Of a stretch of 64,000 bases of DNA, positions 5,354 to 61,861 are shown one piece after another. The translations under genes were made by a program, and so were the position numbers. The stretch spans positions 56,034 through 120,033 of IMG/VR virus record IMGVR_UViG_3300027751_000004. The stretch is one strand, 5' to 3'. Under the pieces are notes generated by a model. The model was given only the letters and a program-made list of their open reading frames with translations. It had not been told where the DNA came from and ran no database searches. Each line of letters starts with the position of its first letter. Within the stretch, counting starts at the first letter, position 1. Source of the stretch: a virus. Its lineage: Duplodnaviria; Caudoviricetes.

Positions 5354-5382
5354 ATTATACTACATTTAAACCCAAAAGTAAA
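5354..5382 (-). promoter_or_regulatory. Early-type sigma70 promoter with upstream A-tracts
   Basis: TTTACT-N17-TATAAT upstream of the AAA ATPase. Confidence 0.85.
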
Positions 5383-5410: not shown

Positions 5411-7489
5411 TTAAGCGACCATCTCAGCAAACTTACTAGCAAGAACACGGTTGCCTTTCTTAGACTTAGCAAACTTCTTAAACTCACGAGTCAGCGCACC
5501 TTTAGAATCATCTTTAGGGGCAAAGTCCGTAGTAGCAGTATCCAACTTTGTAGTTCTCAGGAAGAAGTATCTATCGAAACCTAACTGGTCATCAACAGAT
5601 ACACCGCCTTTTCTCCAGTCAGTAAGGACAGGTCTGATCTCTTGCTCAGTGTCATAACCTTTACCCTCGGAGCGATACAAACGATATCTAACATCATTGG
5701 CTCGGTTAGTTAGGAAGTAACAAACCGTATTACAGCCAGTATGTTTTTTCAACGACTCAACCAGAGTTTGAGTACCAGCATAGTTAGTCTTACAATTGAT
5801 ACGCTCGCCACCTACAGTGAACACCATTCGATTAGAGTTAAAGTAGCCATCGTTCATATCGTGAACTTGCGCATAGTCATAACGAATAGTGTTAGTATCA
5901 CCATCACTCAGCAGAGTAAAGTTTACTTTGTCAAGACCATAAGTATCACGGAAGTCAGGAATCAAAGTATGCATAGCAATCAATGCCTGATTCAGAGGAG
6001 TACCACCCATCATTTCATGCGTAGACTCATGGAAGTTATAGATTTGATAACAAGCAGTTTCAAAGTCTTTCTTGCTCATCTCATTAGAAAGTAACTCAAA
6101 CAGAGACATAGATTCCCAATCAATAACGTGTTTAAAGTTACGCTCTTTAAGACCATTAGAAGTAAACCCATAAACACGGAAAGGGATATTCACTTTACGA
6201 CAAAAGTGTGCGATATTGATAGCTTGTTTCTTTACATTAGCAATACAATCATCCATAGAGCCAGAGTAGTCAACCAACATTACCAGACCATGATTCTTAG
6301 CATCAGCCAGCTTGGTAGTTCTAGCGAAGATATCTTCGTTGTATTTGTAAGAGTATAGTTTAGTAACATCAATAGAACCAGTCTTAGAAGTTCTAGATCT
6401 TGAATAGCGATATGCAGCTTTCTTCATCTCAAACTCACGAGCCATAGTATTAACTACAGACTTGGTCTCAGCCAAGAACTCATCATAAGATTGGGTCACG
6501 TATCTACGCTGATACCAATGAGTGTTTTCATCAGACCTTTCATTAATAAGAGTTTTGTAATCAGCAACAAGACTCTTGGCTTCCTTTAAAGTTAGGGAGC
6601 GAACAACTACAGGGGAACTATCACCATCATGGCTTTCTAGAAGATCAGACTCTTTAGAACGGAACGCTTCATCAGTCTCAACGATTTCGTTACCAGCACC
6701 AGCATTGCTAGAGAATCCTTCCTCAATATCTTTACTTACATCTTCCTCGCTATCTTCAGTATCCTCTCCTTCGATTTCTTCGACAACGTCTTGTTGTTCG
6801 CTGTCCATTTCACTATCTTTACTCTCAGGAATGCCAGATTGATTGTCAGTTGAAGGTGAATCCTCTGTACTTTTTTCCATACTTTCTTCATCGTTATCCC
6901 CCTCAGGATTTTCATTTTGATTTTGAGCTTGATCCTGTTGTTTCTCAACACCTACATAGTCAAGTAAAGATCTAGCAGCATCAACAACTTCTTCCCACGT
7001 TTCAGCAGAGAAACATTTCTTTACTACAGGAAGTTCGTCTTTATCAAATGTAATATCTACTAGTTGGTTCAGTTTGGCTTTAATATTGATACGGTCGGGC
7101 AAACCATAGGAAGAATATTCCCTATCCTGAGTACCAAAGAAGTTTTCGTCAAACAAAACTTGATAACCACCTTGGAACGACTTAACTAATCCTGGATACT
7201 TACTACGGATCATTCGCTCAATGCGGATATCTTCAATAATGTTAAGGAATGAACGAGGAATACCCTCGACATCTATTTCGGAATCATGCCAACCCTCTCT
7301 AGGAGTAAACAAAGCATGACCGACCTCATGACCGATAAGCAGGTCTTGAACATCAGCACCTTTGTCTTTCCATAGGGGAAGATTTAGAACACGGTTAATA
7401 ACATCAAACGATGCGGTCTGGTAGTTACCCTCACGCACCTCAATGTTTTCATTAGCAAGCAATCTAGCTAGAGTAGATTTAACTGTCAT
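5411..7489 (-). CDS. HExxH metallopeptidase-like domain + acidic linker + VWA domain protein ('CobT-like' partner of the MoxR ATPase)
   Basis: HEVGH and NIIEDIRIE at the N-terminus; MIDAS DYSGS, GGTPL and LSDG at the C-terminus. Confidence 0.82.
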   Translation of the reverse strand: MTVKSTLARLLANENIEVREGNYQTASFDVINRVLNLPLWKDKGADVQDLLIGHEVGHALFTPREGWHDSEIDVEGIPRSFLNIIEDIRIERMIRSKYPGLVKSFQGGYQVLFDENFFGTQDREYSSYGLPDRINIKAKLNQLVDITFDKDELPVVKKCFSAETWEEVVDAARSLLDYVGVEKQQDQAQNQNENPEGDNDEESMEKSTEDSPSTDNQSGIPESKDSEMDSEQQDVVEEIEGEDTEDSEEDVSKDIEEGFSSNAGAGNEIVETDEAFRSKESDLLESHDGDSSPVVVRSLTLKEAKSLVADYKTLINERSDENTHWYQRRYVTQSYDEFLAETKSVVNTMAREFEMKKAAYRYSRSRTSKTGSIDVTKLYSYKYNEDIFARTTKLADAKNHGLVMLVDYSGSMDDCIANVKKQAINIAHFCRKVNIPFRVYGFTSNGLKERNFKHVIDWESMSLFELLSNEMSKKDFETACYQIYNFHESTHEMMGGTPLNQALIAMHTLIPDFRDTYGLDKVNFTLLSDGDTNTIRYDYAQVHDMNDGYFNSNRMVFTVGGERINCKTNYAGTQTLVESLKKHTGCNTVCYFLTNRANDVRYRLYRSEGKGYDTEQEIRPVLTDWRKGGVSVDDQLGFDRYFFLRTTKLDTATTDFAPKDDSKGALTREFKKFAKSKKGNRVLASKFAEMVA

Positions 7490-7516: not shown

Positions 7517-7545
7517 ATTATACTATAAGTAATTGAGAAAGTAAA
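7517..7545 (-). promoter_or_regulatory. Early-type sigma70 promoter with upstream A-tract
   Basis: TTTACT-N17-TATAAT upstream of the VWA gene. Confidence 0.85.
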
Positions 7546-7568: not shown

Positions 7569-9284
7569 TTATTTTATCTTACTGAAGTTTCTTTCCTTAG
7601 TAAACTCTATCTTAGATCTAAACTTGCCGTCTAGAACATCACCTTTGTGAGATATGATAAACGTATTAGTTCCTTCCTCTAGAGTCTCAAGGATCTTGAG
7701 TAGATTCTCGATACCATCATTATCTAGAGAAGAGTCAAACGTTTCGTCTAGGATCAATAAGTTAGAAGAAGCACTATTCTTCATACGAGCAATTTGACGC
7801 CATGTAAACAATAATGCCAAATCAATACGTTGTTTCTCACCCTCACTGAACGAGGCATAGTTAAACGAGTCACGGAAACGGGATTTGATAGTCTCAGTGA
7901 AACTCTCATCAAGGTTGAAAGAAACATAGAAGTCCATAACCTGCAGGTAATGATTGATGAGTTTATTCATTACAGGCAGATACTGCTTGATAACCTTAGT
8001 TTTGATACCGCTATCCTTTAGCATTTCGCCCACAGCTTCTTGATAGGTTTTCTGCTCAGATAGTTCTAGCTTTCTCTCGGTTAATGAATCACGCTCTTCG
8101 CTTAGTCGAGTCAGCTTAGAGTTAGCTTCCCCAAGATCTCCCTCTTTAGAGGTAAGTTTAGTGATGTCTTTTTCTAAAGCAGTTATCTGTTTCTGTAGAC
8201 GAGAAATCTCTTTATTGTTAAGTGTCAACTCAGAAGTATCTTCACGAACCTTTTCAGATATAGAATCTAACTCCAATATGTTAGTTTCTACTGCGGCAGA
8301 TTGTGAAGAAGCATCAATAACCGCCTTGTTTAATTCTCTGGCTTTTTCATGAGCAGTCTCTAGTTTATCCTGCCTTAGTTCTTCAGCGATATCTTGTTCG
8401 CAGGTAGGGCATTGCTCGTTGTTTTCATAGAACTTGGCATCCTTAACTACAGACTTTATCTGCTGCTCGAACTGAGCCTTATACTTGAGCAAACTTTGTT
8501 TCTTACTCTGAGCATTAGATATATTTTCTTTCAATCCGTTTGAACATTCTTCTATCGATAACGATAGTGCTGCGTTGCTTTCTTGTATACCTGTAATAGT
8601 AGATTGACTTTCTTCTATCGATTTACGCTTATCGGATATTTGACCATCATTAATGTCAGCAATCTCACGGATGTAGTCTTTCTGTAAACCAATTTTATCT
8701 TTAACCAGTTCTACTCGATACTTGTTATCTTTAGCGTCTTCTTTGAGACGTTGCGACTGCTCTTTCAGTATCTGATTCATCTTACCGAATATTTGAATAT
8801 CAAGTAAATCTTCGATCACCTCACGACGATGATAGGTCGGCAGTTGCATAAACGGAATGAAAGACGAAGAACCAAGAACAACTACTTGGTGGAAAGACTT
8901 ATGATTAAGTTTTAAGATATTTTGCTCTAGGAACTTTTGATAGTCTCGGCTAGTTGATGACTGATCTACCATCTTACCATTCTGCCATATCTCAAACTTA
9001 TTTGGCTTGATACCACGAACAACCTTAAACTCTACGTTGCTGATAGTAAACTCAACTTCAACTAATGCGTCACGGTTATTGATGCTGTTAACTAGCTGCA
9101 GCTTCTTGATGTCTCTATGAGGTTTACCGAATAAGGCGAACGAAAGAGCATCTAGCATGGTAGACTTACCTGCGCCATTATGCCCTACAATCAATGTAGA
9201 GGGGGAGCGGTCAAGGTGTATTTCAGTAAAGGTGTTACCAGTGGACAGGAAGTTCTTCCACCTGAGTTTAGTAAAATGAATCAT
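7569..9284 (-). CDS. gp46: Recombination endonuclease ATPase subunit (Rad50/SbcC-like)
   Basis: KNFLSTGN, GHNGAGKST, CPTC zinc hook, FSEGEK signature, LILDE, ISH. Confidence 0.96.
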   Translation of the reverse strand: MIHFTKLRWKNFLSTGNTFTEIHLDRSPSTLIVGHNGAGKSTMLDALSFALFGKPHRDIKKLQLVNSINNRDALVEVEFTISNVEFKVVRGIKPNKFEIWQNGKMVDQSSTSRDYQKFLEQNILKLNHKSFHQVVVLGSSSFIPFMQLPTYHRREVIEDLLDIQIFGKMNQILKEQSQRLKEDAKDNKYRVELVKDKIGLQKDYIREIADINDGQISDKRKSIEESQSTITGIQESNAALSLSIEECSNGLKENISNAQSKKQSLLKYKAQFEQQIKSVVKDAKFYENNEQCPTCEQDIAEELRQDKLETAHEKARELNKAVIDASSQSAAVETNILELDSISEKVREDTSELTLNNKEISRLQKQITALEKDITKLTSKEGDLGEANSKLTRLSEERDSLTERKLELSEQKTYQEAVGEMLKDSGIKTKVIKQYLPVMNKLINHYLQVMDFYVSFNLDESFTETIKSRFRDSFNYASFSEGEKQRIDLALLFTWRQIARMKNSASSNLLILDETFDSSLDNDGIENLLKILETLEEGTNTFIISHKGDVLDGKFRSKIEFTKERNFSKIK

Positions 9285-10345
9285 TACATAAGTTCCATAT
9301 TTTGTGCTTCAACATATAAACCGTGAACAATATCTTTTATCTTATCTTTGCTCAGCTCAGTATCAACTGCATCAACATATGTATTAAGCATATCTTGAGT
9401 GTCTTCAACGTCTACTTCAGAGTCTTCAATAGCTTCTCCCGCAAACTCTTCAAAGGTCTCAGCAATCTTTACCTCATAGGTATCAATAGCTTGTAGTCTG
9501 TCGATGAATCGGTCAAAGGTAAATGGGTCTTTCTTTTTCTTCACAATAACCTTAACAAAGTTATTAGCCAACTTATCTACGTCAAAGTCGGAGTAGCTTC
9601 TATCCGTATCATCATAATATATGCGAGAGAATATAGTTATAGGGTTCAATACTGGTGTTAACTCACGAGTCTCAGTATCAAATATGTGAAAGTATTTAGG
9701 ATCGTTAACATCAGTCCAAGTAAACTCCATCTGAGAACCAAGATAATGGATATTATCCTGTTGAGATTTAGTATGGAAATGACCAGACATAACCATCTCA
9801 AAACGTTTGAAGTGATCGCTAGACATACCATGTGGATTAGGAAACCCTTTATGCATATCAAAGCCAGCCAACTCGAAATGACCACCCACAATAGAAGCGG
9901 AACAGTTTTCGATAAACTTCATCGTAGAATGATAATTGTCGTTATTGATCCAAGGTATGACCGCTATTCCACAACCGTCATAATCTAGAACCTTTGGCTC
10001 CATATGAATATCTACTTCATTCATGTAGTGCCCGAGCAACTCTTTCAAACTATTCAACTCGTTAGTATTCTTGAAGAACACGTCATGGTTTCCTGGAATA
10101 ATGTCCATATGGATACCCTCTTTGCGGAGTACCTCTAGGAAACTATTGCGGTTAGAGTTAAGTGCTTTGAAGTTAATATACTTGCGATGGTCATAGTAAT
10201 CGCCCAAATGCAAGATGTTGCTTATACCATTTTCTTTTAGGTATGGAAAGAAAACCTCTGAGTAGAAGCGTTCTTGGTAGTTAATGAATATGTCAGACGA
10301 GTTACGGACACCGCAATGGGTATCGTTCAATATAGCAATCTTCAT
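9284..10345 (-). CDS. gp47: Recombination endonuclease nuclease subunit (Mre11/SbcD-like)
   Basis: DTH, LGD, GNHD and SGHFH metallophosphoesterase motifs; adjacent to gp46. Confidence 0.96.
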   Translation of the reverse strand: MKIAILNDTHCGVRNSSDIFINYQERFYSEVFFPYLKENGISNILHLGDYYDHRKYINFKALNSNRNSFLEVLRKEGIHMDIIPGNHDVFFKNTNELNSLKELLGHYMNEVDIHMEPKVLDYDGCGIAVIPWINNDNYHSTMKFIENCSASIVGGHFELAGFDMHKGFPNPHGMSSDHFKRFEMVMSGHFHTKSQQDNIHYLGSQMEFTWTDVNDPKYFHIFDTETRELTPVLNPITIFSRIYYDDTDRSYSDFDVDKLANNFVKVIVKKKKDPFTFDRFIDRLQAIDTYEVKIAETFEEFAGEAIEDSEVDVEDTQDMLNTYVDAVDTELSKDKIKDIVHGLYVEAQNMELM

Positions 10346-10348
10346 AAT

Positions 10349-10930
10349 TTATCCCATAAACAGTTCAAGGTTTTTGTCTTGCTTCTTCTTGGTTATCTTC
10401 TCTTGTTTGCTGAACTCTTTTAGGACACGGTCAGAATCTCTAACCTTATCGATACGACTGCGGAGTTCTTCGATAAATCCATTATCACCTATGTCTTCTC
10501 CAGATGCATCATGCTGAACAATAAACTCCTCAAAGGACGCTTGCTCAATAAACCTCATTTTAACATCAAACTGTTTCTTCTCTTTCTGGATACGTCTTAT
10601 GAAAGCATAATAGCATATCTGAGTAAAGTACGCAAACGCATTAGGATTACCAGTACGAGTGGCTGTTTCTATATTGTAATTCATGATAGCTTTCAGGCAG
10701 TTTTCTACAGCATCCATAACCATTTCTTCCCGATAGGTATATCGAATGAAGTTAGGTTTATGCGATAGACCTTCAGATATTTTTAAGAAACATGTGGCGA
10801 TATATTCGGTTACGATGGGGTTTGTTTCGCCCCTTTCCTGCGCCTGCTTGACAGAATTGACGTAATCGACTACAGACTGCGAGAACAATTTATTGTTCAC
10901 ATAATGAGGCTTGTTGGCAGGTTTAGTCAT
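10349..10930 (-). CDS. gp55: Late-transcription sigma factor
   Basis: HYVNNK, KISEGLS.KPNF..YTY.EEMV.D, NAFAYFTQICYYAF.RRI.KEK. Confidence 0.95.
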   Translation of the reverse strand: MTKPANKPHYVNNKLFSQSVVDYVNSVKQAQERGETNPIVTEYIATCFLKISEGLSHKPNFIRYTYREEMVMDAVENCLKAIMNYNIETATRTGNPNAFAYFTQICYYAFIRRIQKEKKQFDVKMRFIEQASFEEFIVQHDASGEDIGDNGFIEELRSRIDKVRDSDRVLKEFSKQEKITKKKQDKNLELFMG

Positions 10931-10962
10931 TATAATCTTTCCATTTTAAGTTTGATAAGCAT

Positions 10963-10991
10963 ATTATACTACATTATCGCTCAAAAGTAAA
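10963..10991 (-). promoter_or_regulatory. Early-type sigma70 promoter for gp55-gp47-gp46
   Basis: TTTACT-N17-TATAAT. Confidence 0.85.
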
Positions 10992-11026
10992 GTATTAATT
11001 TAATTTAATTTATTTGAAGAAAAGGC

Positions 11027-11078
11027 TTTACTTTTTGTCATTTTTATAGTATAATATAAGAGTTGTTCGGGGGAGGGT
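11027..11078 (+). promoter_or_regulatory. Orphan early-type promoter followed by a G-rich box, antisense to the uvsW operon
   Basis: TTTACT(11027-32)-N17-TATAAT(11050-55), then GGGGGAGGGT (11069-78); no credible plus-strand ORF follows. Confidence 0.75.
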
Positions 11079-11088
11079 GAGTATACCT

Positions 11089-11475
11089 TTAATGTAGTGT
11101 CGATTTAGGGTCGATATCAGTTTCCCATTCATCATCATACTCATCATCTGTTTCTGGCGAAGCCAGATCATCGTCGGGATAGACCTCACGGAGACGCAAG
11201 GCAGTAGCGATGTATTTCTCTTTAGTATTTTCGCTGGCTTTGCAAGTAGCGATTACTGTATCTGCGTTTATGAATACTGTTAATGAATCAGGCTGAACAG
11301 TGAACCAAGGAGTCATGAAGATCCTTTGCATCCTATCCTCGTTATAGATGTTCATAAGCAGAGGGGATTCAACTATGTATCCATGATCTTCCATACCTCT
11401 TATATAGCCAATCACCTCATTCCCATCTATGAGTTTAAAGTGCCTGATATCAACTTCGTCTATTTCGAATTTCAA
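11089..11475 (-). CDS. Hypothetical protein downstream of uvsW (possible Sm-like fold, acidic tail)
   Basis: FKL..G.EVI...P.......PW pattern; TTG start overlaps the uvsW stop. Confidence 0.7.
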   Translation of the reverse strand: MKFEIDEVDIRHFKLIDGNEVIGYIRGMEDHGYIVESPLLMNIYNEDRMQRIFMTPWFTVQPDSLTVFINADTVIATCKASENTKEKYIATALRLREVYPDDDLASPETDDEYDDEWETDIDPKSTLH

Positions 11476-12977
11476 ATTTCTAGCTCATATATTTTGTAAT
11501 CAAATTTCTCTTTCGAGTATATCTTTATACGTTCTGCAGCGTGATTTAGAGTATAATTCTTACGATTTTTATGATGTAAATCATCCGCTATATCGTACAA
11601 GTTCGTTTCTCGCCCATCGTCAGATTTTCTTAGCCCACGACCAATAGACTGCAACACTTTAACCTGAGACTTTGACGGAGAGGCAAATACAATATTATGT
11701 ATATTCCTTATATTAACCCCCGTAGAGAAAGTCCCTAGAGAAGCAACCACGATAGCATTCTTTTCTCTTTCTGTGATTTGCCTTACCATTTCCCTATCAT
11801 CTACATCAGTTTGCCCAGATACAAAGAAGATCTTACGATTCTTATGAGCACCCTCTTTAATAATATTGTAAAGTGGCTTGCCGTGTTTCTCTACTAGGTT
11901 GAATAGAACTAGCGTGTTACCATCTTGGTCTAGTGCTAGGTTCTTTATAAATGTATTGCGTTTCTCATTACTTACAATGAAATCTATTTCTTCCTGATAC
12001 TTAGCTTTCTTCATCTGAAAACATACTTCAGCTGGATACTTTAGTAATAGGACATTTATCTTTAATTCTGATAATGCCCCAGAGTCCATAAGGTTCTTTG
12101 TATTGGTAACTCGATAAACTGGACCGAAGTGTCCTTCTAGAACCAAACGGTGAGTTTGAGTGCCGTCAAGAGTACCAGTGGTTCCAATACGGAACTCAGC
12201 ATCCCTAAGTTTACCCATAATTGTACCAAGTGACTTTGCTTTAAAGTTATGCGCTTCATCTCCAACTACTGCTCCAAATTGTTCAAACCAAGTTGCAGGC
12301 AGTTTATAGATTGACTGCCATGTTGTTATAGTAACTCTCTTATCAGAGCTCTTTTCCTTACCAGAATAGATCTTATGTATCTCGTCTACGGCATTAAAGT
12401 ATTCGTCGTATTCGGAATAGTCCGCAAAGTCAGAAGCCATTTGCTCTACCAAAGAAGTGGTAGGAACTACAATAAGAAAGTTTTTATCTCTATTATGTAG
12501 GAAGTATCTCATTATGGCATATATGATAAGAGACTTACCAGATGCGGTTGGAGATAGCAAAAGAGCATTCTTGTTTTCTAGCCCATGACGGATCGCTGTA
12601 AGCTGATAGTCTCTGGGTTTAATCTTATTGCCCCCAGACGTGAGGTTCATACTATTGATAAAGGAGTTGAAATCTCCCTCGTCAATAGGAACTTCTGTAT
12701 CAGGTCTACCGTACCAAGCATCTTGCTCTACAAATAGATCGTAATCCCTAGCACCTACAAATTCTTTTAGGTATTTGAATAGACCTATGGGCAACTCTTT
12801 CTTTCTTGAATCATATAACCGTATCTTCCCATCCCACATCTTATTCTTGAACGCAGGCATAAACTGATACCCTGGAACAAGGAAGCAAAAGAAATCGCTC
12901 AGTTCGTTCTCAATTGAAGGATCTGTTATAACGCTGAGGAATGCGTGGTTCTTTTTCTTTACGGTTAGAGAATTCAT
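11472..12977 (-). CDS. uvsW: SF2 RNA-DNA/DNA helicase UvsW
   Basis: WDGKIRL, PRDYQ, SPTASGKS, DEAH, TGT, QSIGRGLR. Confidence 0.96.
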   Translation of the reverse strand: MNSLTVKKKNHAFLSVITDPSIENELSDFFCFLVPGYQFMPAFKNKMWDGKIRLYDSRKKELPIGLFKYLKEFVGARDYDLFVEQDAWYGRPDTEVPIDEGDFNSFINSMNLTSGGNKIKPRDYQLTAIRHGLENKNALLLSPTASGKSLIIYAIMRYFLHNRDKNFLIVVPTTSLVEQMASDFADYSEYDEYFNAVDEIHKIYSGKEKSSDKRVTITTWQSIYKLPATWFEQFGAVVGDEAHNFKAKSLGTIMGKLRDAEFRIGTTGTLDGTQTHRLVLEGHFGPVYRVTNTKNLMDSGALSELKINVLLLKYPAEVCFQMKKAKYQEEIDFIVSNEKRNTFIKNLALDQDGNTLVLFNLVEKHGKPLYNIIKEGAHKNRKIFFVSGQTDVDDREMVRQITEREKNAIVVASLGTFSTGVNIRNIHNIVFASPSKSQVKVLQSIGRGLRKSDDGRETNLYDIADDLHHKNRKNYTLNHAAERIKIYSKEKFDYKIYELEI

Positions 12978-13423
12978 TATGCACCGTTAGTAAATCTGTG
13001 CCAGTCTATCATATTCTTAATTGTAGAATGGCGCCATCTGAGATTATTGATTATCTCTTCAAGGGTTTCTATTATAGCCTGAGCCAGATCGATCTTTGCA
13101 TTTAGCTTTTGCATGTCTGGGTCAGAACGGTAGAAGTAATCCATATCACCCTTCAAGACTCTCAACCCATTTGTAGGGTCTGGATCCCAACCAAGTTTAC
13201 GAACTTGATCAACGTCCATCTTTCCTGAGTAGTATAGCCACTTATTCTTGAACATAACATCTAGCTGACTCTCGAGATACTTCTTCTCAAGTTTGCTTTT
13301 GGTCATCATTTCAAGATATTTTGCGTGTAGGTTTGGGGTAACTCTAGAAGATTCGTCTAGCTTTAAACGATCTATCTCCGAGTCAGTTTTCCACATGTCC
13401 ATAATTTCTTCAATATTGTACAT
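12977..13423 (-). CDS. uvsY: Recombination mediator UvsY
   Basis: LHAKYL, KWLYYSGK, IKNMIDW.RF..G; position between gp3 and uvsW. Confidence 0.9.
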   Translation of the reverse strand: MYNIEEIMDMWKTDSEIDRLKLDESSRVTPNLHAKYLEMMTKSKLEKKYLESQLDVMFKNKWLYYSGKMDVDQVRKLGWDPDPTNGLRVLKGDMDYFYRSDPDMQKLNAKIDLAQAIIETLEEIINNLRWRHSTIKNMIDWHRFTNGA

Positions 13424-13443
13424 AATATACCTTGTATCAGTGT

Positions 13444-13911
13444 TTATTCAATAGTCATATCCGAGAAAGAAAATACCACATCTGCAGTTATATAGGAGAC
13501 TTCAGTAGCACCTGCATCAAACTCAAGTCCGCCAATAGAAGTTGGTATTGCGTTCTTGAAAGTGAATGTTCTATTCTCATTATTGTGGCTCGTCATAACC
13601 ATTAATGTTATATCGCTAAACTGATCACCTAGAAGAGACTGGTCCATCACTGAAGCATTAATCCAATCAAAGATTTCTTTGTAGGATTTCATATCTTCGT
13701 CGACTATTAGTTTAACTGATAAATCTTCAAAAGTCAACTTATCTCCGTAGATATTCATATTCCTTTGAGACAAGTTTGCCGTTGTAACCCCAGAAGATAC
13801 TGCTGGGACTGATACGCCAGTAGCAAAAAACTCTAGGTTCGGAAACTTCTGCAGAACCAATTTGAATGATACTGGAGATAAAGAATTGATATTTTCGGGG
13901 ATAGCTGCCAT
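13444..13911 (-). CDS. gp3: Tail tube terminator / tail completion protein
   Basis: LSPVSF, GDKLTFEDL...IVDEDM..Y.EI.DW; follows gp23. Confidence 0.85.
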   Translation of the reverse strand: MAAIPENINSLSPVSFKLVLQKFPNLEFFATGVSVPAVSSGVTTANLSQRNMNIYGDKLTFEDLSVKLIVDEDMKSYKEIFDWINASVMDQSLLGDQFSDITLMVMTSHNNENRTFTFKNAIPTSIGGLEFDAGATEVSYITADVVFSFSDMTIE

Positions 13912-13939
13912 TGTAATATACCTTTACTTATTGTAACTC

Positions 13940-13947
13940 TATTTATA
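13940..13947 (-). promoter_or_regulatory. T4-type late promoter (gp3)
   Basis: TATAAATA on the minus strand just past the gp23 terminator. Confidence 0.85.
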
Positions 13948-13951
13948 AGGC

Positions 13952-13978
13952 AAAAAAAGAGGGAGCCGAAGCTCCCTC
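13952..13978 (-). terminator. Intrinsic terminator after gp23
   Basis: GAGGGAGC-UUCG-GCUCCCUC followed by U7. Confidence 0.93.
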
Positions 13979-14002
13979 AAAACTAACAATATTTCGTTAT
14001 GT

Positions 14003-15400
14003 TTATTCTCCAGCAGCACCAATAACGTTTGACACACCGAAGATACGGAAGTAACCATTCGAACGGTTAGTACCAACAGTACCAACACCAGAGTCATTTT
14101 GGCCAGTAACGAATGGGTTAGCAACCATGCCATAACGAGTCTTAAAGCCGATTTTCGGTTGGAAAGTATTCTCGCCAACTGCTTTAACCATAGTTAATGG
14201 TACATATGGGCAGTAGAATAGACCTGCGTCATATGGGTTAGAACCACGATAGCCAACAGTTACATAGTTAACAGTTGCATATGGATCGATGTATACTTTC
14301 ATACGACCGTTAAGTACACCAGCAAAAGTATTACCAGTATCGTCTACTTGTAGGTTAGTAGAAAGAGCAGGCGTATAGTCTAAAAGACCAGAAGCAGCAA
14401 GAGCAGAAGCAACATCTGATGAACAGATGATGAAGTTACCTTTACCACGACGAGTGTCTTTAGCGATAGCATTAGCTTCAATTTCGATCTTCATGATCAA
14501 AGACTTATACTTCTCTACAGACCAACGACCATCAGTAGCGTCTAGGTCGAAGTGACCATTAGTAACAGCACCAGCAGCTCCACCAGTTGCAGTACCAGCC
14601 TGTTTAGTAGCTAGTTTTGCTTTAATGTTGATAGTACGGATAACTTCACGGTTCACTTCAGCTAGGATCTCAGCAGAAAGAATGTTAGCCAACTCAGTCT
14701 CAGCGTCTAGACCGTGTACAGCTTTAAGGTCTTGAGCCAATTCCATAGTGTACTCAGCTTTCAACTGACGGCTAGTAGCAGTTACAGAAGTACGATCAAT
14801 TGAGAACGCCATTTCACCAAAGGTAGAACCTTCACCAGCAGCAGTTGTCATACCAGTACCAATGCCAAAAGCAGCATCTAGATCGATATTGCCGTCAACA
14901 GCATCAAGAACATCGTCATCGTCACTATCAACCTGTAGATTGTCGTTACCGAAAGCAGGATCTAGGCTTGAAGAGTTACCATCGTGAGCTCGGGCGGTGC
15001 CAAGGTTAGTACCAGTACCAGTACCAGAGAAGTCTGTTTTAGCTTCGTCGAATAGAGCTTCAGAGCGAGAAGCGTCGCCAGCAACATATTCTGATTTCAT
15101 TGCAAAGATAAGACCAGTAGGACCAGACATAGGCTGAACACCAGCAATATCATAAGCAATTAGGTTAGGCATAGCACGACGTACTAGCGAGATTAATACT
15201 GGATCAAAATTATCTACTTGACCAGCTACGTTTGACTCAGTCATAAAGCCTTGTTGAGCTTTTTGCTCTTGTAATGCTTTCTCAGTGTTCTCAAGTAGAG
15301 CAGCAGTTACAGCTTTACGATAGTTATCTTTGATTGGTGCAGCAGCTTCTGCGTCCAATACTGGAGACCATTTCTCCGTTAATTTTTCAGATCCGAACAT
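14003..15400 (-). CDS. gp23: Major capsid protein
   Basis: FDPVLISLVRRAMPNLIA.DI.GVQPM.GPTG, LKAEYTMELAQDLKAVHGLDAE, YCPYVPL, FQPKIGFKTRYG. Confidence 0.98.
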   Translation of the reverse strand: MFGSEKLTEKWSPVLDAEAAAPIKDNYRKAVTAALLENTEKALQEQKAQQGFMTESNVAGQVDNFDPVLISLVRRAMPNLIAYDIAGVQPMSGPTGLIFAMKSEYVAGDASRSEALFDEAKTDFSGTGTGTNLGTARAHDGNSSSLDPAFGNDNLQVDSDDDDVLDAVDGNIDLDAAFGIGTGMTTAAGEGSTFGEMAFSIDRTSVTATSRQLKAEYTMELAQDLKAVHGLDAETELANILSAEILAEVNREVIRTINIKAKLATKQAGTATGGAAGAVTNGHFDLDATDGRWSVEKYKSLIMKIEIEANAIAKDTRRGKGNFIICSSDVASALAASGLLDYTPALSTNLQVDDTGNTFAGVLNGRMKVYIDPYATVNYVTVGYRGSNPYDAGLFYCPYVPLTMVKAVGENTFQPKIGFKTRYGMVANPFVTGQNDSGVGTVGTNRSNGYFRIFGVSNVIGAAGE

Positions 15401-15418
15401 TTTATGTTCTCCTTAAAT

Positions 15419-16558
15419 TTAAATTGTTTTTGAAAGTGCGTTCAAGTAGGCTTGCATAGCAGGCGAACTTGTTTTTTGTTCAGAAGATTCTTGAACTTCT
15501 TCTTTGGTGTCAGTGCCAGTAGCTTTAAAGTAAGATTCTTTAAGAGTAGCAACTTTAGCTACAAAAGATTCTTGACTTTCGTACTCTACGCCTTCAGCCA
15601 AAGTGCGAAGTTTTTCCACTTCAGTTTCTGCCATTCCAACAGTCGCTTCACGAATGATTTCTTCACGACGGAAATCGGAAACTTTCTCAGCTAGATCGAT
15701 ATTGTCACCAACAGTTTTGTTAAGTTGCTCTTCGAGTTCCTCAACTTTACCAGCTAGTTCGTCTACCATATCTACCTTAGACTCAGGTACTTCAATGTAG
15801 TTTTCTACAAACAGTGATTGTAATGAATCAATAAAGTTTTCAGCAATCTCGGTACGAAGACCGTTAGTAACCGCAACTTCATTGGTTTCCATCCACTGCT
15901 CAACAACATAATTGAGGTATCCGTCAACTTTCTCTACAATCTCGCCACGAGCTGATTCACTTTCTTCAGCAAGTTTTTCGGCATAAGATTCTTCGAGACG
16001 TTGTACTTCCGCAGTAACTTTAGTTTTAACAGCAGCTTCGAAGATAACAGCAGCTTTGTCTTTAAAGCCTTCAGCTAATGCTTCTTCACCGTCAACCAAT
16101 GCATCTAGGTCTTCGGAGAAATCAACATTAAGTTCCAACTCTGCAGATTCAGCAACTTCTTCGACAGCTTCTTCAGATTCTTCAGCAATTACCTTATTAT
16201 AGGCAGTTGTCAAGTCGTCTTTGCTCATCTCAGACATTTTTTCGTAAATGGCTTTAATCATACCAGCTTTAGTGCTAGGCATGTCTACATCTTCTTTAGC
16301 CATTTTCTTTTTCTTACTGGATTCAGACTTCTCTTCGTCGCCTTCATCTTCGTCTTCGTCTTCGACTTCGCTTTCTTCGTCATCTACTTCGACTTCAGCT
16401 TCGTCGTCAGATTCTTCATCTGTCTTCTTAGCTTCTTTCTTAGCAGACGCTTCAACTAGCTCCTCGTCAACTTCAACGTCTTCAACTAAACCTTCTAGTT
16501 GTTCCTCAGTAATGTCTTCGATAAGATCAACTTCTTGATCTACGATTTGATCAGACAT
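15419..16558 (-). CDS. gp22: Prohead core scaffold protein
   Basis: Very acidic; F..KA..IFEAAV, KVDGYLNYVVEQWM; between gp21 and gp23. Confidence 0.92.
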   Translation of the reverse strand: MSDQIVDQEVDLIEDITEEQLEGLVEDVEVDEELVEASAKKEAKKTDEESDDEAEVEVDDEESEVEDEDEDEGDEEKSESSKKKKMAKEDVDMPSTKAGMIKAIYEKMSEMSKDDLTTAYNKVIAEESEEAVEEVAESAELELNVDFSEDLDALVDGEEALAEGFKDKAAVIFEAAVKTKVTAEVQRLEESYAEKLAEESESARGEIVEKVDGYLNYVVEQWMETNEVAVTNGLRTEIAENFIDSLQSLFVENYIEVPESKVDMVDELAGKVEELEEQLNKTVGDNIDLAEKVSDFRREEIIREATVGMAETEVEKLRTLAEGVEYESQESFVAKVATLKESYFKATGTDTKEEVQESSEQKTSSPAMQAYLNALSKTI

Positions 16559-30181: not shown

Positions 30182-32078
30182 CGTCGAAAGAACCGCCATC
30201 GATAATGTTACTAAATGCTGGTGTACCAGCACTATCTGCTTGTAAAATAGATCCATCAGCAGTTGATGCTGCTGTTACCGCTAGAGCATTAGCACCATTA
30301 CCAAGTACAACGCCATTAGAAGTAACTGTAGCTAAACCAGTACCACCGTTCGTTACAGGTAGTGTTGCAGTCACCTTAGTAGTAAGATCAATAGATCCTG
30401 CTAACATGGTATTTGTGATGCCACTAGCTTTTACTTGTAATGCGTCCGAAGCAATTTCTATAGATGATCCATCAACCGCAACATTTAACGTGTTACCACT
30501 TTTTGTTAATGCGGAACCAGCCTCAATTTGACCAGCACCAGAGAACTGTTCAAAGATGATGTCATCATTGGCTCCTCCAATGGCAGTATGAGTTTCTGTT
30601 TGAACAAAACCATTAGAGCCATTTATAGTTCCGTTTTCAACGAATAGGAAGTCACCAGAAGCAATCTCATCTACCGTGTCAAAATCTGATGCTCTTGTAA
30701 ATGTTGTTGAATCGGTTCTAATGTAGATACCGTTATGCTCTTGAGCAGTTTCGTCTTTAATTAGAATCCTGTCACCGTCTACTAAGGTATATCCATCAAG
30801 TGTTGAGATTCCAGTAGAAAGTATTAATGTCGCATCGACCCCAGCATCTTCATTATCATAGGTTACTGTGCCACCACTCTCAGTCGCTAAGTCTTGTGTT
30901 GTTGCAGCTTTTGCAGAAGCATGAACATGAAGACCTTCAGCAATTGCATCAACATAAGATTTAGGAACTACTGAGTCTGCATCTAAATTAGTTCTAGTTT
31001 CATACGAACTAGGTAGTTTAACAACACCTTGCCCATTAGGTGAGAGAATTAGGTCTCCGTCTGTGTCTGTTGTTAGAATCGAGTTATCTTTGATTTGGAC
31101 ATTATCGATATCAACTTGAGTAAGTCCTGCCAGTGCGGTAGCTGATGCGCCAAGATCAATTTCGGTTATACCGACTGTGACACTATCGTTAGTAAGTTTT
31201 CCGTTTGCTACGGAAGCATCTACTAACTGTGATCCATTAATTGAAAGATCTGCTTGATGTGCTGTAACGTCGTCAGAAGTTACTGAATAACTTGTGATGT
31301 ATCCAGCGCCATTTGTAAGCGTATTATTATTTGTTGGAATATCACTTGTAAGCGCAACAGTACCAGTTGCTGTTGGAAGCGTTAACGTACCAGTGTTACT
31401 AATAGAAGAAATTACAGGTGTTGTCAGTGTTTTATTCGTAAGAGTTTGTGTGCCAGTTAATGTCGCAACTGTTGATGAATCTATTGCGAATGATACCTGA
31501 TTGTTTGAAACCGTAGTATCAATACCAGTACCGCCAGCAAATGTTAATGTGTCTGTACCAACAGTAACGACATCATCAGTACCACTATCAGCACCAACCG
31601 TAAGGCTGGCAGACAAAGAACTTGTTGCAAAATCAACATATTCTTTAGTAACTAATGAGTCATCGCCTAATCCAGCTCGATCTTTATATCCAGAAGGAAC
31701 ATTAACAACTCCAGTGCCCTTTGGGGTGAGGGTAATTGAAAGGTTAGCTTCAGTACTTTGCGCAGCAATATCAGCATCGTGATACTTTAAATTAGCAGCA
31801 GCAGTACCGATTGTAAGTTCGTCTAGACGGCTATCGCCATCAACAATAAGCGCAGAACTAGCAGTTGTAGTACCAGCAGCATGATCCAACATATCGGTAA
31901 AGTGCTGACCGCCAATTACAATTGGATTAACTTGGGTCCCACCTGAACCGTCGGATTCAGTTTTACCAATAAAGAGTTTATTTGAGGCGTATGAATATGC
32001 TTGTTCCGCTTGCGCTAGTATATCTCCACCTGGTTCATTAGCAGTACTAGCACTTTTAATTTTAATTACTGTCGCCAT
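30177..32078 (-). CDS. Fibre-like virion structural protein
   Basis: 633 aa, T/G/A/S-rich; TLTGTQTLTNKTLT, TKEYVD/KSYVD, GDRILIKD.T...NGIY, LPVTNGGTG motifs typical of phage fibres. Confidence 0.8.
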   Translation of the reverse strand: MATVIKIKSASTANEPGGDILAQAEQAYSYASNKLFIGKTESDGSGGTQVNPIVIGGQHFTDMLDHAAGTTTASSALIVDGDSRLDELTIGTAAANLKYHDADIAAQSTEANLSITLTPKGTGVVNVPSGYKDRAGLGDDSLVTKEYVDFATSSLSASLTVGADSGTDDVVTVGTDTLTFAGGTGIDTTVSNNQVSFAIDSSTVATLTGTQTLTNKTLTTPVISSISNTGTLTLPTATGTVALTSDIPTNNNTLTNGAGYITSYSVTSDDVTAHQADLSINGSQLVDASVANGKLTNDSVTVGITEIDLGASATALAGLTQVDIDNVQIKDNSILTTDTDGDLILSPNGQGVVKLPSSYETRTNLDADSVVPKSYVDAIAEGLHVHASAKAATTQDLATESGGTVTYDNEDAGVDATLILSTGISTLDGYTLVDGDRILIKDETAQEHNGIYIRTDSTTFTRASDFDTVDEIASGDFLFVENGTINGSNGFVQTETHTAIGGANDDIIFEQFSGAGQIEAGSALTKSGNTLNVAVDGSSIEIASDALQVKASGITNTMLAGSIDLTTKVTATLPVTNGGTGLATVTSNGVVLGNGANALAVTAASTADGSILQADSAGTPAFSNIIDGGSFDV

Positions 32079-60706: not shown

Positions 60707-60714
60707 TATTTATA
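60707..60714 (-). promoter_or_regulatory. T4-type late promoter for the gp48-gp53-hub-gp5 operon
   Basis: TATAAATA on the minus strand, overlapping the first base of the gp4 ATG. Confidence 0.82.
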
Positions 60715-61187
60715 TGAAAACATACAAAGGAAAATACACACCCAAAAATAAGAGTAAATACGTGGGTGATGTAAAAAATATCGTTTATCGTTCTCTCTGG
60801 GAGAGGCAAACGTTCAGATGGGCAGATGATAACCCTGCTATCCTCGAGTGGGGATCGGAGGAAGTCGTCATTCCCTATGTTTGCGCTACAGATAATAAAG
60901 TCCACCGATACTATATAGACATGTATTTTAAGACCGCAGATGGCAAGAAGTATCTGATAGAGATTAAACCAAAGTCGCAGACAGTACCGCCCAAAAAAGG
61001 TCAACGCCAAACAAAACGTTTCATCACAGAATCATTGACCTACATCAAGAACACTTCTAAATGGAAAGCTGCCACAGAGTTTGCTCAGGACAATGGATGC
61101 ATATTCCAAATATGGACAGAGGATGTATTAAAGGGTATTGGGATAAAGATACTTGGCGGAAAGGTAAAGCGTAAGAAGAAAAAATAG
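60714..61187 (+). CDS. gp4: Head completion protein (TnsA-like nuclease fold)
   Basis: YKGKY.P.N..KY.GD, YRSLWE, W.SEE..IPY, HRYY.D, IEIKP..QT, KW.AA. Confidence 0.93.
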   Translation: MKTYKGKYTPKNKSKYVGDVKNIVYRSLWERQTFRWADDNPAILEWGSEEVVIPYVCATDNKVHRYYIDMYFKTADGKKYLIEIKPKSQTVPPKKGQRQTKRFITESLTYIKNTSKWKAATEFAQDNGCIFQIWTEDVLKGIGIKILGGKVKRKKKK

Positions 61188-61193
61188 AGATAG

Positions 61194-61245
61194 ACCATCC
61201 CCAGCAGGGGTGTTATATTATACCTTATTATTGAATAAAAGTAAA
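61194..61245 (-). promoter_or_regulatory. Orphan early-type promoter followed by a G-rich box, antisense to gp4
   Basis: TTTACT(61245-40)-N17-TATAAT(61222-17), then GGGGATGGT (61202-61194). Confidence 0.75.
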
Positions 61246-61254
61246 GGGAAATCT

Positions 61255-61262
61255 TATAAATA
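61255..61262 (+). promoter_or_regulatory. T4-type late promoter (gp2 operon)
   Basis: TATAAATA 5 nt upstream of the gp2 ATG. Confidence 0.85.
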
Positions 61263-61267
61263 GTGCT

Positions 61268-61861
61268 ATGGCTGAATCATTGTTTCAAAACTTAGAATCA
61301 CAAGCGTTTCGTGCGGGAGTAACTCCACGAACAGATGAATCACGTAAGTGGTTTCGTCAAAAAATTCAACAGATGGGTAAAGTAAACCGACAACAGATTT
61401 TAAAAGATCCTTTACTGGATACGCAAAAGAGATTTGTTACTGGTAAGATGTTTATGTTCTTCTACGATCCAAAGTATCGTGAGACGTTACCTTACTATGA
61501 TGCGTTTCCTTTGACCATTATGATAAGTCCTGCTCCTGGAGGGTTCTATGGGTTGAACCTACACTACCTATCTCCAATGGTAAGGGCAAGATTCTTAGAT
61601 AAATTAATGGCGCTACAAAATAATAAAAATAACGATGAGACGACCAGATTAAAATTAACCTATAATATGTTACAAGGTGCTAAAAAGTATAGAGAATTTA
61701 AACCTTGTTTTAAGCATTACTTGACAAAACATGTAGACTCAAGGATTGTTCGTGTTGACCCACCTGAGTGGGAGATCGCAGTATTCTTACCCACAGAGCA
61801 ATTCCGTAAACAAAGTAAATCCCGTGTTTGGGGAGAATCTAAGAGGTCGTTTAGTAGCTAA
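61268..61861 (+). CDS. gp2: DNA end protector protein
   Basis: S..WF, G.M.MF.YDPK...TLPYYD.FPL, GLNLHYL, K.YL..HV, LPT..F.K. Confidence 0.92.
   Translation: MAESLFQNLESQAFRAGVTPRTDESRKWFRQKIQQMGKVNRQQILKDPLLDTQKRFVTGKMFMFFYDPKYRETLPYYDAFPLTIMISPAPGGFYGLNLHYLSPMVRARFLDKLMALQNNKNNDETTRLKLTYNMLQGAKKYREFKPCFKHYLTKHVDSRIVRVDPPEWEIAVFLPTEQFRKQSKSRVWGESKRSFSS

Follow-up and report, generated by a model that had tools for sequence, protein, structure and literature searches.

Ocean T4-like phages are among the most abundant viruses known, yet we know of no experimental knowledge of where their replication starts and, to our knowledge, little is known of how their late genes are timed without MotA and AsiA. 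Mitochondrial CSB II and ColE1 RNA II are G-rich primer elements, and the OOP RNA of phage lambda is a defined transcript of 77 nt, cis-antisense to cII and carrying a terminator. A precedent for antisense RNA in a cyanophage is CfrI of S-PM2 (PMC2984593). An A+T-rich unwinding element is a defining part of the T4 origins oriF and oriG, and the sequence rule for R-loop formation in T4 has been described as an open question (Kreuzer and Brister 2010, PMC3016281). The promoter-early stem-loops (PeSLs) of T4-type phages (Arbiol et al. 2010, PMC2839356; Comeau et al. 2014, PMC4122927) are oriented along the genes and end in the ribosome site and start codon of the downstream gene (PMC2839356; PMC4122927).

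The DNA examined here, referred to as the window, is a stretch of 64,000 nucleotides from a marine T4-like phage, which a distant search of a phage collection placed among Kyanoviridae-like genomes; a near-identity search of that collection with the phage sequence gave no match. The sequence TTTACT-N17-TATAAT occurs at six exact sites in the window, the same count as in the initial annotation, where 0.05 would be expected, and at 17 sites in the whole record of 120,033 b (16 on the minus strand, one on the plus strand). Fifteen of these 17 promoters run directly into a ribosome site and start codon and two are gene-less. The four copies that had been described as driving genes (3706, 5354, 7517 and 10963) do have a ribosome site and an ATG 25-45 nt on. 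The two that had been called orphans, at 11027-11055 (+) and 61245-61217 (-) and hereafter sites 1 and 2, have no gene behind them and point at the stop codons of convergent genes (11089-11091 and 61185-61187). The promoter at site 1 is predicted to be of the sigma70 type, in the early dialect of the 15 gene-driving promoters. None of the Rfam 15 covariance models reached its gathering score in the 64-kb window, and at 10700-11700 there were only snoRNA matches at chance level (E 0.24 or worse). The features of both sites are collected in Table 1.

Table 1. Features at and around the two gene-less promoters (positions in the window)
Feature	Position	Strand	Sequence or remark
Genes behind four promoters	3706, 5354, 7517, 10963		Clamp gp45, CobS-like ATPase, CobT-like protein, gp55
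gp55, late sigma factor gene	10349-10930		Driven by promoter 10963-10991 (-)
gp55 sigma70-type promoter	10963-10991	-	TTTACT-N17-TATAAT; back-to-back with site 1 promoter; then ribosome site and gp55 ATG
A+T-rich spacer between the two divergent -35 hexamers	10992-11026		83% A+T
Site 1 orphan antisense promoter	11027-11055	+	TTTACT 11027-11032, 17-nt spacer, TATAAT 11050-11055
Site 1 leader module	11059-11086	+	AGAGT 11059-11063; G/purine tract GGGGGAGGGTGAG 11069-11081; GTATAC 11081-11086
Late operon gp3-uvsY-uvsW-GC139	11089-13947	-	Would be opposed by orphan transcript
Small T4-GC139 'MauE-like' protein	11089-11475	-	Stop codon 11089-11091
uvsW	11472-12977	-	
uvsY	12977-13423	-	
gp3-like	13444-13911	-	
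Late promoter of uvsY-uvsW operon	13940-13947	-	TATAAATA
Strong intrinsic terminator after major capsid gene	13959-13978	-	GAGGGAGC-TTCG-GCTCCCTC then T7
Site 2 hairpin	61196-61212	+	CATCCCC-AGCA-GGGGTG then TTATATTATA; 61194-61212 with G-box
Site 2 orphan promoter	61217-61245	-	Between gp4 (60714-61187, +) and gp2 (61268-61861, +)
gp2 late promoter	61255-61262	+	TATAAATA; 10 nt beyond the -35 of the site 2 promoter

The whole element at site 1 spans 11027-11086 (+) and abuts the stop codon of GC139, and its purine tract includes the G-box (11070-11078) to which the initial annotation had drawn attention. The 40 nt upstream of the orphan -35 contain 17% G+C in the window and about 20% on average in 50 relatives. 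Among ORFs starting within 150 nt of site 1, the longest has six codons. A small ORF behind the promoter was considered and rejected, its length in relatives running from 6 to 111 codons (median 34) with variable starts. An RTG does follow the purine tract. It is the complement of the His codon conserved at the C-terminal end of the convergent gene, and it lies at too variable a distance from the tract for the latter to be its ribosome site.

Site 1 was sought in relatives by the scan between uvsW and gp55 that had been proposed at the outset, and its promoter and G-rich tract are positionally conserved. The element is present in 51 distinct relatives (gp55 proteins about 57-70% identical to that of this phage; two are near-identical strains), typically some 100-140 nt away from gp55, with promoter position, polarity, abutment to the stop codon, absence of an ORF and leader all kept, and a backward promoter lies 60-300 nt from gp55 at about 50 of 80 gp55 loci. 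The leader consensus reads TATAAT-AATAGAGT-N6-GGGGGnGGGGGG-TATAC; in the RNA the conserved parts are AGAGU, an unstructured G/A-rich tract of ~12 nt and RUAUAC, whose distance from the -10 hexamer is constant at 24-28 nt. Pattern matches that have a proper -35 and a G-rich tract all lie 90-140 nt from gp55 and 410-560 nt from uvsW, a placement that random matches do not share. In three relatives (L045, L078 and L085) a gene has been inserted between the element and gp55, and the backward promoter remains at the GC139 stop codon, at the operon end, with no sigma70 partner; in L182 the element lies behind an extra gene at the end of the operon.

Two further comparisons bear on what is being conserved. 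In contig 3300045135_000898 the element occurs a second time, again right beside the stop codon of a convergent gene, here an Rz-like one upstream of nrdA. The two copies agree at every one of the 37 nt from TATAAT to TATAC and the 17-nt spacer differs at about 10 positions, which suggests that the constraint on the start of the transcript is sequence-specific and not one of base composition alone. Within clades, the transcribed 30 nt of the element are conserved. Cultured Kyanoviridae keep the backward promoter in position and polarity with a G tract that is weak or absent, as in S-CAM7, S-CAM9 and S-SM2, and any family-wide function would therefore rest on the promoter and its transcription rather than on the G-box. 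In P-SSM2, S-CAM9 and S-8S56, both promoters use one palindromic -35 (CTTGACAAG), and thus must compete for polymerase.

We consider early antisense transcription from site 1 into the late genes to be the best reading of this site, albeit a tentative one. Host sigma70 RNA polymerase would read the conserved gene-less promoter, which sits where the last late operon (gp3-uvsY-uvsW-GC139) meets the early/middle block starting with gp55, and would fire backwards into the late operon. Early in infection, when host-type promoters are active, the product would be a non-coding RNA antisense to the 3' end of the uvsW operon, and this RNA, the convergent polymerases or both may hold down, process or insulate that operon. 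Once polymerase switches to the late mode, the orphan promoter would fall silent and the late operon would be released. The purine-rich leader could serve this RNA by making promoter escape efficient or by stabilising its 5' end in the manner of a ribosome-binding site.

The order gp3-uvsY-uvsW-GC139 is the same in P-SSM2, S-CAM7, S-CAM9, S-SM2 and S-8S56. An antisense RNA that damps late genes had been put forward only as an alternative to an origin; the comparative anatomy is somewhat more in its favour, since in every case the promoter directly adjoins the stop codon of the late operon, while its expression and the damping are steps that we infer. It is also suggested by the persistence of the element at the end of the late operon where genes have been inserted (L045, L078, L085 and L182), and by a gene-less site 1 that faces a target operon with a putative late promoter (TATAAATA at 13940-13947). 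Against this, a discrete RNA would be expected to have a conserved terminator. No plus-strand terminator follows site 1 before 12298 in the window, none is conserved in relatives, and a hairpin with a U tail follows the element in one relative only, L014. The intrinsic terminator behind the major capsid gene is predicted to isolate the uvsY-uvsW operon from upstream transcription. With this terminator (13959-13978) and a gp55-dependent promoter, the late operon should be silent early, so that the need for an antisense RNA is not obvious. Simple antisense pairing would also leave the fixed-distance RTATAC and purine tract unexplained, and the leader has no outstanding target in trans, its best candidate (-31.7 kcal/mol) falling within the span of -29.7 to -36.8 obtained with shuffled queries. 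Metatranscriptome coverage of 8500-15500 consists of unstranded Logan contigs of low depth with possible DNA carry-over, covering 9716-11250 and other pieces; one contig of 1559 nt, from a near relative, bridges site 1 and others stop at 10936, 11002 and 11141, with starts, ends and strand unreadable.

Several candidate properties of the leader RNA were rejected. A conserved hairpin is not apparent (mean MFE -4.1 kcal/mol, median z -0.37), and pairing of AGAGU with AUACU has a constant A-A mismatch and shows no covariation. Taken alone, the purine block fits the anti-Shine-Dalgarno sequence no better, and its Gs cluster no more, than in composition-keeping shuffles; an apparent signal stems from a pyrimidine-containing flank.

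The initial annotation had joined the two orphans through a G-box in the same register. Within the window, GGGGAKGGT does occur at these two sites only (0.35 expected; at least two in 6 of 100 shuffles), and at each it occupies +15 to +23 counted from the -10 hexamer; this part of the claim is upheld. As a common and conserved feature of both sites the G-box was not borne out. Site 2 is found only in a 99% relative (L095), in which one extra G in the G run makes the spacing unlike that of the window, and is absent from 79 other, more distant relatives, where the spacer between gp4 and gp2 is short and holds the late promoter alone. A profile built from the relatives of site 1 scores site 2 at E = 2.3. 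No second conserved orphan promoter was found within 2.5 kb of gp4/gp2 in relatives. A back-to-back divergent partner is present at both sites, as had been noted, and differs in type, being a sigma70 promoter (gp55) at site 1 and late-type (TATAAATA) at site 2. The sole reading frame at site 2 has 37 codons and is antisense to gp4.

The G run of site 2 has a structural context of its own. The C-arm of the hairpin is the complement of the G-box noted earlier (61194-61202), and the minus-strand RNA folds as ACCCC-UGCU-GGGG (-7.5 kcal/mol, z = -2.1). The hairpin looks like a putative terminator of gp4, and a G-box that forms an arm of a terminator-like hairpin behind gp4 gives site 2 a resemblance to an inverted PeSL-like cassette. 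Site 2 therefore looks like a separate, lineage-specific insertion of an inverted promoter and a G/C stem-loop, the latter probably doubling as the terminator of gp4. The same genome has a classical PeSL around a forward promoter (GATGGGG-TATAATAG-CCCCATC at G000 12772-12800).

The case for regarding the two sites as copies of a single G-box element is accordingly weak, and we take their likeness to be probably part chance and part a promoter dialect common to this phage. The G-box identity of 8/9 in register is unique among the 136 pairs of the 17 promoters, and the likeness is higher than is comfortably chance. It is conceivable, although on balance unlikely, that the orphans are paralogous copies of one family (promoter, ATAAnA start and G run at +15), with site 2 a recently acquired, diverging second copy that has the function of site 1. 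Over the first 26 nt the two agree at 15/26 positions, a level attained by 13 of the 136 pairs, and neither exceeds 11/26 against the gene-driving promoters. Each fires into the stop codon of a late gene, contig 3300045135_000898 has a true second copy at another junction, and the gp55 site of L083 and L076 has a C5-loop-G4 hairpin reminiscent of site 2. Set against these points are the poor score of site 2 with the site 1 profile, its lack of AGAGT and RTATAC, the unrelated spacers, the different spacing in so close a relative as L095, and a hairpin that by itself explains the G run.

Site 1, and perhaps site 2, could instead be a transcription-primed replication origin, a reading that we regard as unlikely. 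The early sigma70 transcript would stay annealed through its purine/G-rich first 25 nt, aided by negative supercoiling between the divergent promoters, and would prime leading-strand synthesis until late-expressed UvsW removes R-loops; site 1 would be the positional counterpart of T4 oriF. This had been the main proposal of the initial annotation, and what survives of it is a site 1 that is conserved, gene-less and hybrid-prone, together with a late uvsW, while the lack of an unwinding element and of a skew inflection and the lineage-specific nature of site 2 count against it. In favour of an origin are a strongly conserved promoter with no gene, and a purine tract that is free of pairing in the RNA and whose composition is kept while its sequence is not. 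The hybrid-minus-duplex ddG of the leader, -7.5 kcal/mol, is within the top 0.013% of the 20-mers of the record, and among the 17 promoters the two orphans have the most negative values, with the other 15 between -0.6 and -4.1. In T4, oriF is the uvsY promoter and fires towards the 3' end of uvsW (T4 record NC_000866); in the present phage uvsY has been relocated into the uvsW operon, behind a late promoter, and a gene-less promoter is left in the polarity of oriF. T4 origins sit in late-gene regions and use early or middle promoters, and their R-loops need no specific sequence (PMC3016281). Two copies of the element in some phages would be expected with several origins per genome.

Other observations weaken the case for an origin. 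The A+T-rich unwinding element required by T4 oriF and oriG (PMC3016281) is absent downstream of site 1: G+C content is 43% at +1 to +35 and 35% at +36 to +135 (mean of 50 loci; window 45%), and the latter interval matches coding background. The A+T-rich tract lies upstream of the promoter instead, and an overlap of the two -35 hexamers leaves cultured cyanophages without it. S-CAM7, S-CAM9 and S-SM2 have a weak G tract or none, and the leader of T4 oriF itself is not rich in G (70% A+T, ddG -2.0). G+C skew has no inflection at site 1; its minimum is at the strand switch 60666/60714 and merely tracks gene orientation. Site 2 is not conserved and has its G run tied up in an RNA hairpin, and the identical 37 nt in two copies of the element argue for sequence-specific selection and not for composition. 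In its most specific form, site 1 would be the fixed origin of cyanophage-type (Kyanoviridae-like) T4 relatives, a positional descendant of oriF without uvsY in which the polypurine/G tract, not an A+T-rich unwinding element, nucleates an R-loop that late UvsW shuts off; this version, too, seems to us unlikely.

That the backward promoter has no function of its own, whether it arises from symmetry or crowding around the gp55 promoter (bidirectional noise) or is a mere competitor or supercoiling partner that tunes gp55 with an irrelevant RNA, would agree with the single palindromic -35 of P-SSM2, S-CAM9 and S-8S56 but is very improbable given its retention at the operon end without a sigma70 partner in L045, L078 and L085, and a transcribed 30 nt that is conserved within clades and identical between two copies in one genome.

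Site 1 provides a defined, mutable handle of ~60 bp on either the start of replication or the timing of late genes. Since the promoter is also present in cultured cyanophages, phage-host pairs already available would allow a test of either reading. Antisense transcription, if true, would show how late and early blocks are insulated in a phage with nearly all of its genes on one strand. An origin, if true, would tie T4 oriF to the whole phage family and give a simple rule for R-loops, namely a promoter plus a polypurine tract.

Comparison with the described systems places the two sites differently. Site 2 resembles PeSLs in its strong sigma70-like promoter with a TTTAC-type -35 and A+T-rich sequence upstream, in an adjoining stem-loop of G-tract and C-tract, which in PeSLs works as a terminator, and in insertion/deletion polymorphism among relatives (L095 has the cassette, 79 do not). 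It is unlike them in being inverted relative to gp4 and gp2, gene-less and within a conserved structural module. Site 1 shares with CSB II and ColE1 RNA II a G run (G5AG3) in the nascent RNA near the promoter, which would favour a persistent RNA:DNA hybrid. It differs in having only two G runs (no intramolecular quadruplex), in their position at +8 to +22 and not 100-500 nt further on, and in a G tract that is not kept across the phage family. As in T4 oriF and oriG, a predicted sigma70 -10 promoter of pre-late type lies in a late-gene region; as in oriF, it is on the opposite strand to uvsW and converges on its 3' end, UvsW is under late control, and the RNA leader is purine-rich (62% purine in T4). 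The T4 oriF promoter, however, is a MotA-dependent middle promoter that also expresses uvsY, whereas site 1 is gene-less, and where T4 needs an A+T-rich unwinding element, site 1 has a G-rich leader followed by ordinary coding sequence. The putative RNA of site 1 departs from OOP in having no conserved terminator and in conserving a 5' module rather than a hairpin. With both lambda OOP and S-PM2 CfrI it shares a promoter of its own just downstream of the target, convergent orientation, the lack of an ORF and an overlap with the target starting at its stop codon.

Beside gp55, the backward sigma70-type promoter and its leader (site 1) are, by their distribution among relatives, a real, conserved element, of which we found no description in the literature searched. 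This element would belong to the phage antisense promoters or, possibly, to the transcription-primed origins, and its function is directly testable in cultured cyanophages. The phage itself is placed by gene content and nearest records among T4-like marine myoviruses, in or near the cyanophage family Kyanoviridae; Phage C48C1 is the top DNA match, Synechococcus phages make up 166 of the 190 matches, and the 120,033-b IMG/VR record, whose bases 56034-120033 make up the window, has an estimated completeness of 66%. Nearly every gene between 873 and 60666 lies on the - strand. The order around site 1 is gp23 (major capsid), a strong terminator, a late promoter, gp3-like, uvsY, uvsW, GC139 (cyanophage gene cluster T4-GC139), the intergenic region, gp55 (late sigma factor), gp47 and gp46, and the terminator shields the uvsY-uvsW late operon against transcription from upstream. 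The same order occurs in the cultured cyanophages P-SSM2, S-CAM7, S-CAM9, S-SM2 and S-8S56.

In about 50 of 80 IMG/VR loci encoding gp55 relatives, a sigma70-type promoter lies on the opposite strand upstream of gp55, usually at a distance of 60-140 nt and in a few cases of about 300 nt. Behind it comes a module that begins with AGAGT and continues through 5-7 variable bases and about 12 nt rich in G/A to (G/A)TATAC, or RTATAC (alignment consensus TATAAT-AATAGAGT-N6-GGGGGnGGGGGG-TATAC). Two near-identical strains excepted, gp55 of the element-bearing relatives is about 57-70% identical to that of the window. In all 51 distinct versions collected RTATAC falls 24-28 nt after the -10, and the gap to the convergent stop codon varies from 2 to about 12 nt. 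One relative (L015; gp55 99% identical) has several intergenic changes, yet its G-box, GGGGA(G/T)GGT, is intact and its -35 is nearer consensus. Phage C48C1 also carries the element, and site 1 has no match in Rfam. An independent scan of all viral contigs for TATAAT-N3-AGAGT-N16-26-RTATAC gave a clean separation: matches that have both a G-rich tract and a proper -35 all lie about 90-140 nt from gp55 and 410-560 nt from uvsW, a few being further away where extra genes intervene, whereas matches lacking a -35 and low in G have neither gene nearby. In the five cultured cyanophages a backward promoter occupies the same place, but its leader differs (AACTCTG-N3-GGGTTCAAGGGAAC or weaker) and the G tract is slight or missing, a finding that marks this tract as clade-specific. 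In three of these marine phages a single palindromic -35 (CTTGACAAG; TTGACA on one strand, TTGTCA on the other) is common to the gp55 and backward promoters, which must therefore exclude each other.

Positions of the two sites and of associated features in the window, the whole record and the relatives' loci (L-numbers)
Feature	Sequence	Position	Remark
Site 1 promoter	Window	11027-11055 (+)	
Site 2 promoter	Window	61245-61217 (-)	
GC139	Window	11089-11475 (-)	3' of uvsW
DNA just past the late operon's last stop	Window	11060-11092 (-)	UAAAGGUAUACU...CCCCCGAA
Late-operon 5' leader	Window	13889-13936 (-)	UAAAGGUAUAUU...CCCCGAA
Late-operon promoter	Window	13940-13947	TATAAATA
Skew minimum	Window	about 60615	
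Coding-strand switch	Window	60666/60714	
Late promoter at switch	Window	60707-60714 (-)	
Gene-driving promoters with common leader	Window	5354-5382, 7517-7545	- strand
Gene-driving promoters with common leader	Whole record	59-87, 325-353, 6615-6643, 30585-30613	- strand
PeSL-type arrangement	Whole record	12772-12800	GATGGGG-TATAATAG-CCCCATC
Element in Phage C48C1	L176	1941-1975	
Element copy, IMGVR_UViG_3300045135_000898	L010	12079-12139	At gp55
Element copy, IMGVR_UViG_3300045135_000898	L014	811-870	Upstream of nrdA
Cytidylyltransferase-like insert	L045	2025-2465	FDLLHxGH motif
Cytidylyltransferase-like insert	L078	2033-2467	FDLLHxGH motif
Cytidylyltransferase-like insert	L085	2038-2457	FDLLHxGH motif
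Shared palindromic -35	L175 (P-SSM2)	1940-1975	Each -10 16-17 nt away
Shared palindromic -35	L294 (S-CAM9)	2515-2550	Each -10 16-17 nt away
Shared palindromic -35	L296 (S-8S56)	2415-2450	Each -10 16-17 nt away

Rearranged relatives reveal what the element stays attached to. Where a cytidylyltransferase-like gene (which apparently lacks its own sigma70 promoter) is inserted between element and gp55, in three loci, the backward promoter has no sigma70 partner and is still at the GC139 stop codon; where an extra gene follows GC139 (L182), the element is placed behind that gene; and contig IMGVR_UViG_3300045135_000898 has a second copy upstream of nrdA, where it faces an Rz-like gene's stop codon. 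What stays constant throughout, then, is a host-type promoter firing into the 3' end of an upstream, co-oriented operon. GC139, a small 'methylamine utilization'/MauE-like protein, has a conserved His directly before its stop, for which all three stop codons are used in the window and its relatives. It sits where T4-type coliphages have uvsW.1, after which those phages keep a conserved bidirectional terminator (PMC1524935). The 5' leader of the late operon resembles the DNA just past the operon's last stop; paired with the orphan leader, it forms a duplex no stronger than shuffled controls do, and the likeness may be due to chance.

The leader encodes no conserved ORF: among frames that begin within 150 nt, the longest has a median length of 34 codons (6 in the window) and scattered starts, and the ATG/GTG after the tract is antisense to GC139's conserved C-terminal His codon. 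The 30-nt leaders have essentially no structure (mean MFE -4.1 kcal/mol, median z -0.37, with 35% of their G residues paired), the site-1 leader has no outstanding trans target, and in the purine block neither anti-Shine-Dalgarno complementarity nor G clustering exceeds composition-keeping shuffles. Across phages, the composition of this block is what is kept. The two copies on contig 3300045135_000898 share every one of the 37 nt that run from TATAAT to TATAC and differ at about 10 positions in their 17-nt spacers, which points away from conservation of composition only and looks like selection or short-tract gene conversion acting on the exact transcript start. By published nearest-neighbour values (Sugimoto 1995 RNA/DNA and Allawi-SantaLucia DNA tables, Biopython), the site-1 tract is favoured as RNA:DNA hybrid over DNA duplex by 7.5 kcal/mol, in the top 0.013% of the record's 20-mers; hybrid minus duplex is -4.7 to -5.9 at site 2 and -0.6 to -4.1 at the other 15 promoters.

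We tentatively favour, at slightly under even chances, an antisense or interference element, whose promoter would act through antisense RNA or interference by firing into the 3' end of the facing late operon. This reading fits the single constant feature, the element's position right against a late operon's stop codon, and it has phage precedents. It would account only loosely for RTATAC and the purine tract, as aids to promoter escape or 5' stabilisation of the kind known from T5 N25 and from the polypurine stabilisers of Bacillus. An R-loop replication origin is a rather unlikely alternative. T4 oriF and oriG, located in late-gene regions and shut off by late-made UvsW, span about 100 bp and consist of a middle promoter and an A+T-rich unwinding element; R-loops form in the latter with no specific sequence needed (PMC3016281). 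In the annotated T4 record the uvsY promoter serves as oriF; it is on the other strand from uvsW and fires towards that gene's 3' end, and site 1 has exactly this polarity. In the Kyanoviridae-like family, where uvsY precedes uvsW in one operon, a promoter kept without its gene suggests that priming, its other job, may be what is conserved. However, the unwinding element that defines the T4 origins is missing from site 1 (+36 to +135 has 35% G+C, the coding background), cultured cyanophages do not keep the G tract, and the same measure gives a ddG of only -2.0 for the T4 oriF leader, which is thus not hybrid-prone. A mere promoter by-product or a partner of the gp55 promoter we consider very improbable; what probability remains goes to something else, for example a site at RTATAC that binds a protein or makes the polymerase pause.

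The initial annotation had reported six copies of TTTACT-N17-TATAAT in the window, two of them gene-less, and both counts hold: 0.05 copies are expected, and neither orphan, each facing a convergent gene's stop codon, leads within 25-45 nt to a ribosome site and start codon. The whole record has 17 copies, 16 on the gene strand and 15 with a ribosome site and start codon within that distance. Directly behind the -10, the gene-driving early promoters have a conserved leader in common, A-N3-GTAT(A/T)-N-A(A)TTGA; in two it reads TGTATAAATTGA, containing a late-promoter-like TATAAAT. This may let their genes be expressed early as well as late, or it may be a 5' UTR signal that they share. Sites 1 and 2 agree at 15 of the first 26 transcribed bases, among them GGGGA(G/T)GGT at +15 to +23, found in the window only at these two places, and theirs is the sole 8/9 match in G-box register among 136 promoter pairs. 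The earlier observation thus survives in part: site 1 is a real, conserved element and the G-box is in register at both orphans, but it is no family-wide signature, a hairpin accounts for it at site 2, and the 'identical spacing' is lost even in the 99% relative L095 (one extra G in the run).

Site 2, between gp4 and gp2, has its promoter in only one of 80 loci encoding gp2 relatives, L095; in the other 79 the gp4-gp2 spacer is 20-30 nt and holds a late promoter alone, and none has an orphan promoter within 2.5 kb. On this survey the junction is not conserved as a second orphan-promoter site in the window's lineage. The G-box of site 2 complements the 5' arm of the hairpin CATCCCC-AGCA-GGGGTG, after which comes TTATATTATA and which a scan flags as terminator-like behind gp4, and the - strand RNA folds into the same hairpin (z = -2.1). 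The minimum of the record's cumulative G+C skew, 0.6 kb from site 2, coincides with its only coding-strand switch, at which - strand baseplate genes give way to + strand gp4 and late promoters face in both directions. Site 2 may possibly belong to the site-1 family as a second copy that has diverged: a C5-loop-G4 hairpin resembling it is present in two gp55-site relatives (L083, L076). A profile of site-1 relatives counts against this, with E = 2.5e-4 for site 1 and 2.3 for site 2. Our own reading is of an inverted PeSL-like cassette. A textbook PeSL-type arrangement, with the -10 of a forward promoter in the loop, occurs 43 kb before the window. PeSL cassettes of T4-type phages combine a strong early promoter with a G-tract/C-tract stem-loop and are found in one lineage and missing in relatives (PMC2839356, PMC4122927). 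Although site 2 differs from these in being inverted and gene-less, it resembles them in its strong early promoter joined to a G/C-tract stem-loop and in its lineage-specific presence.
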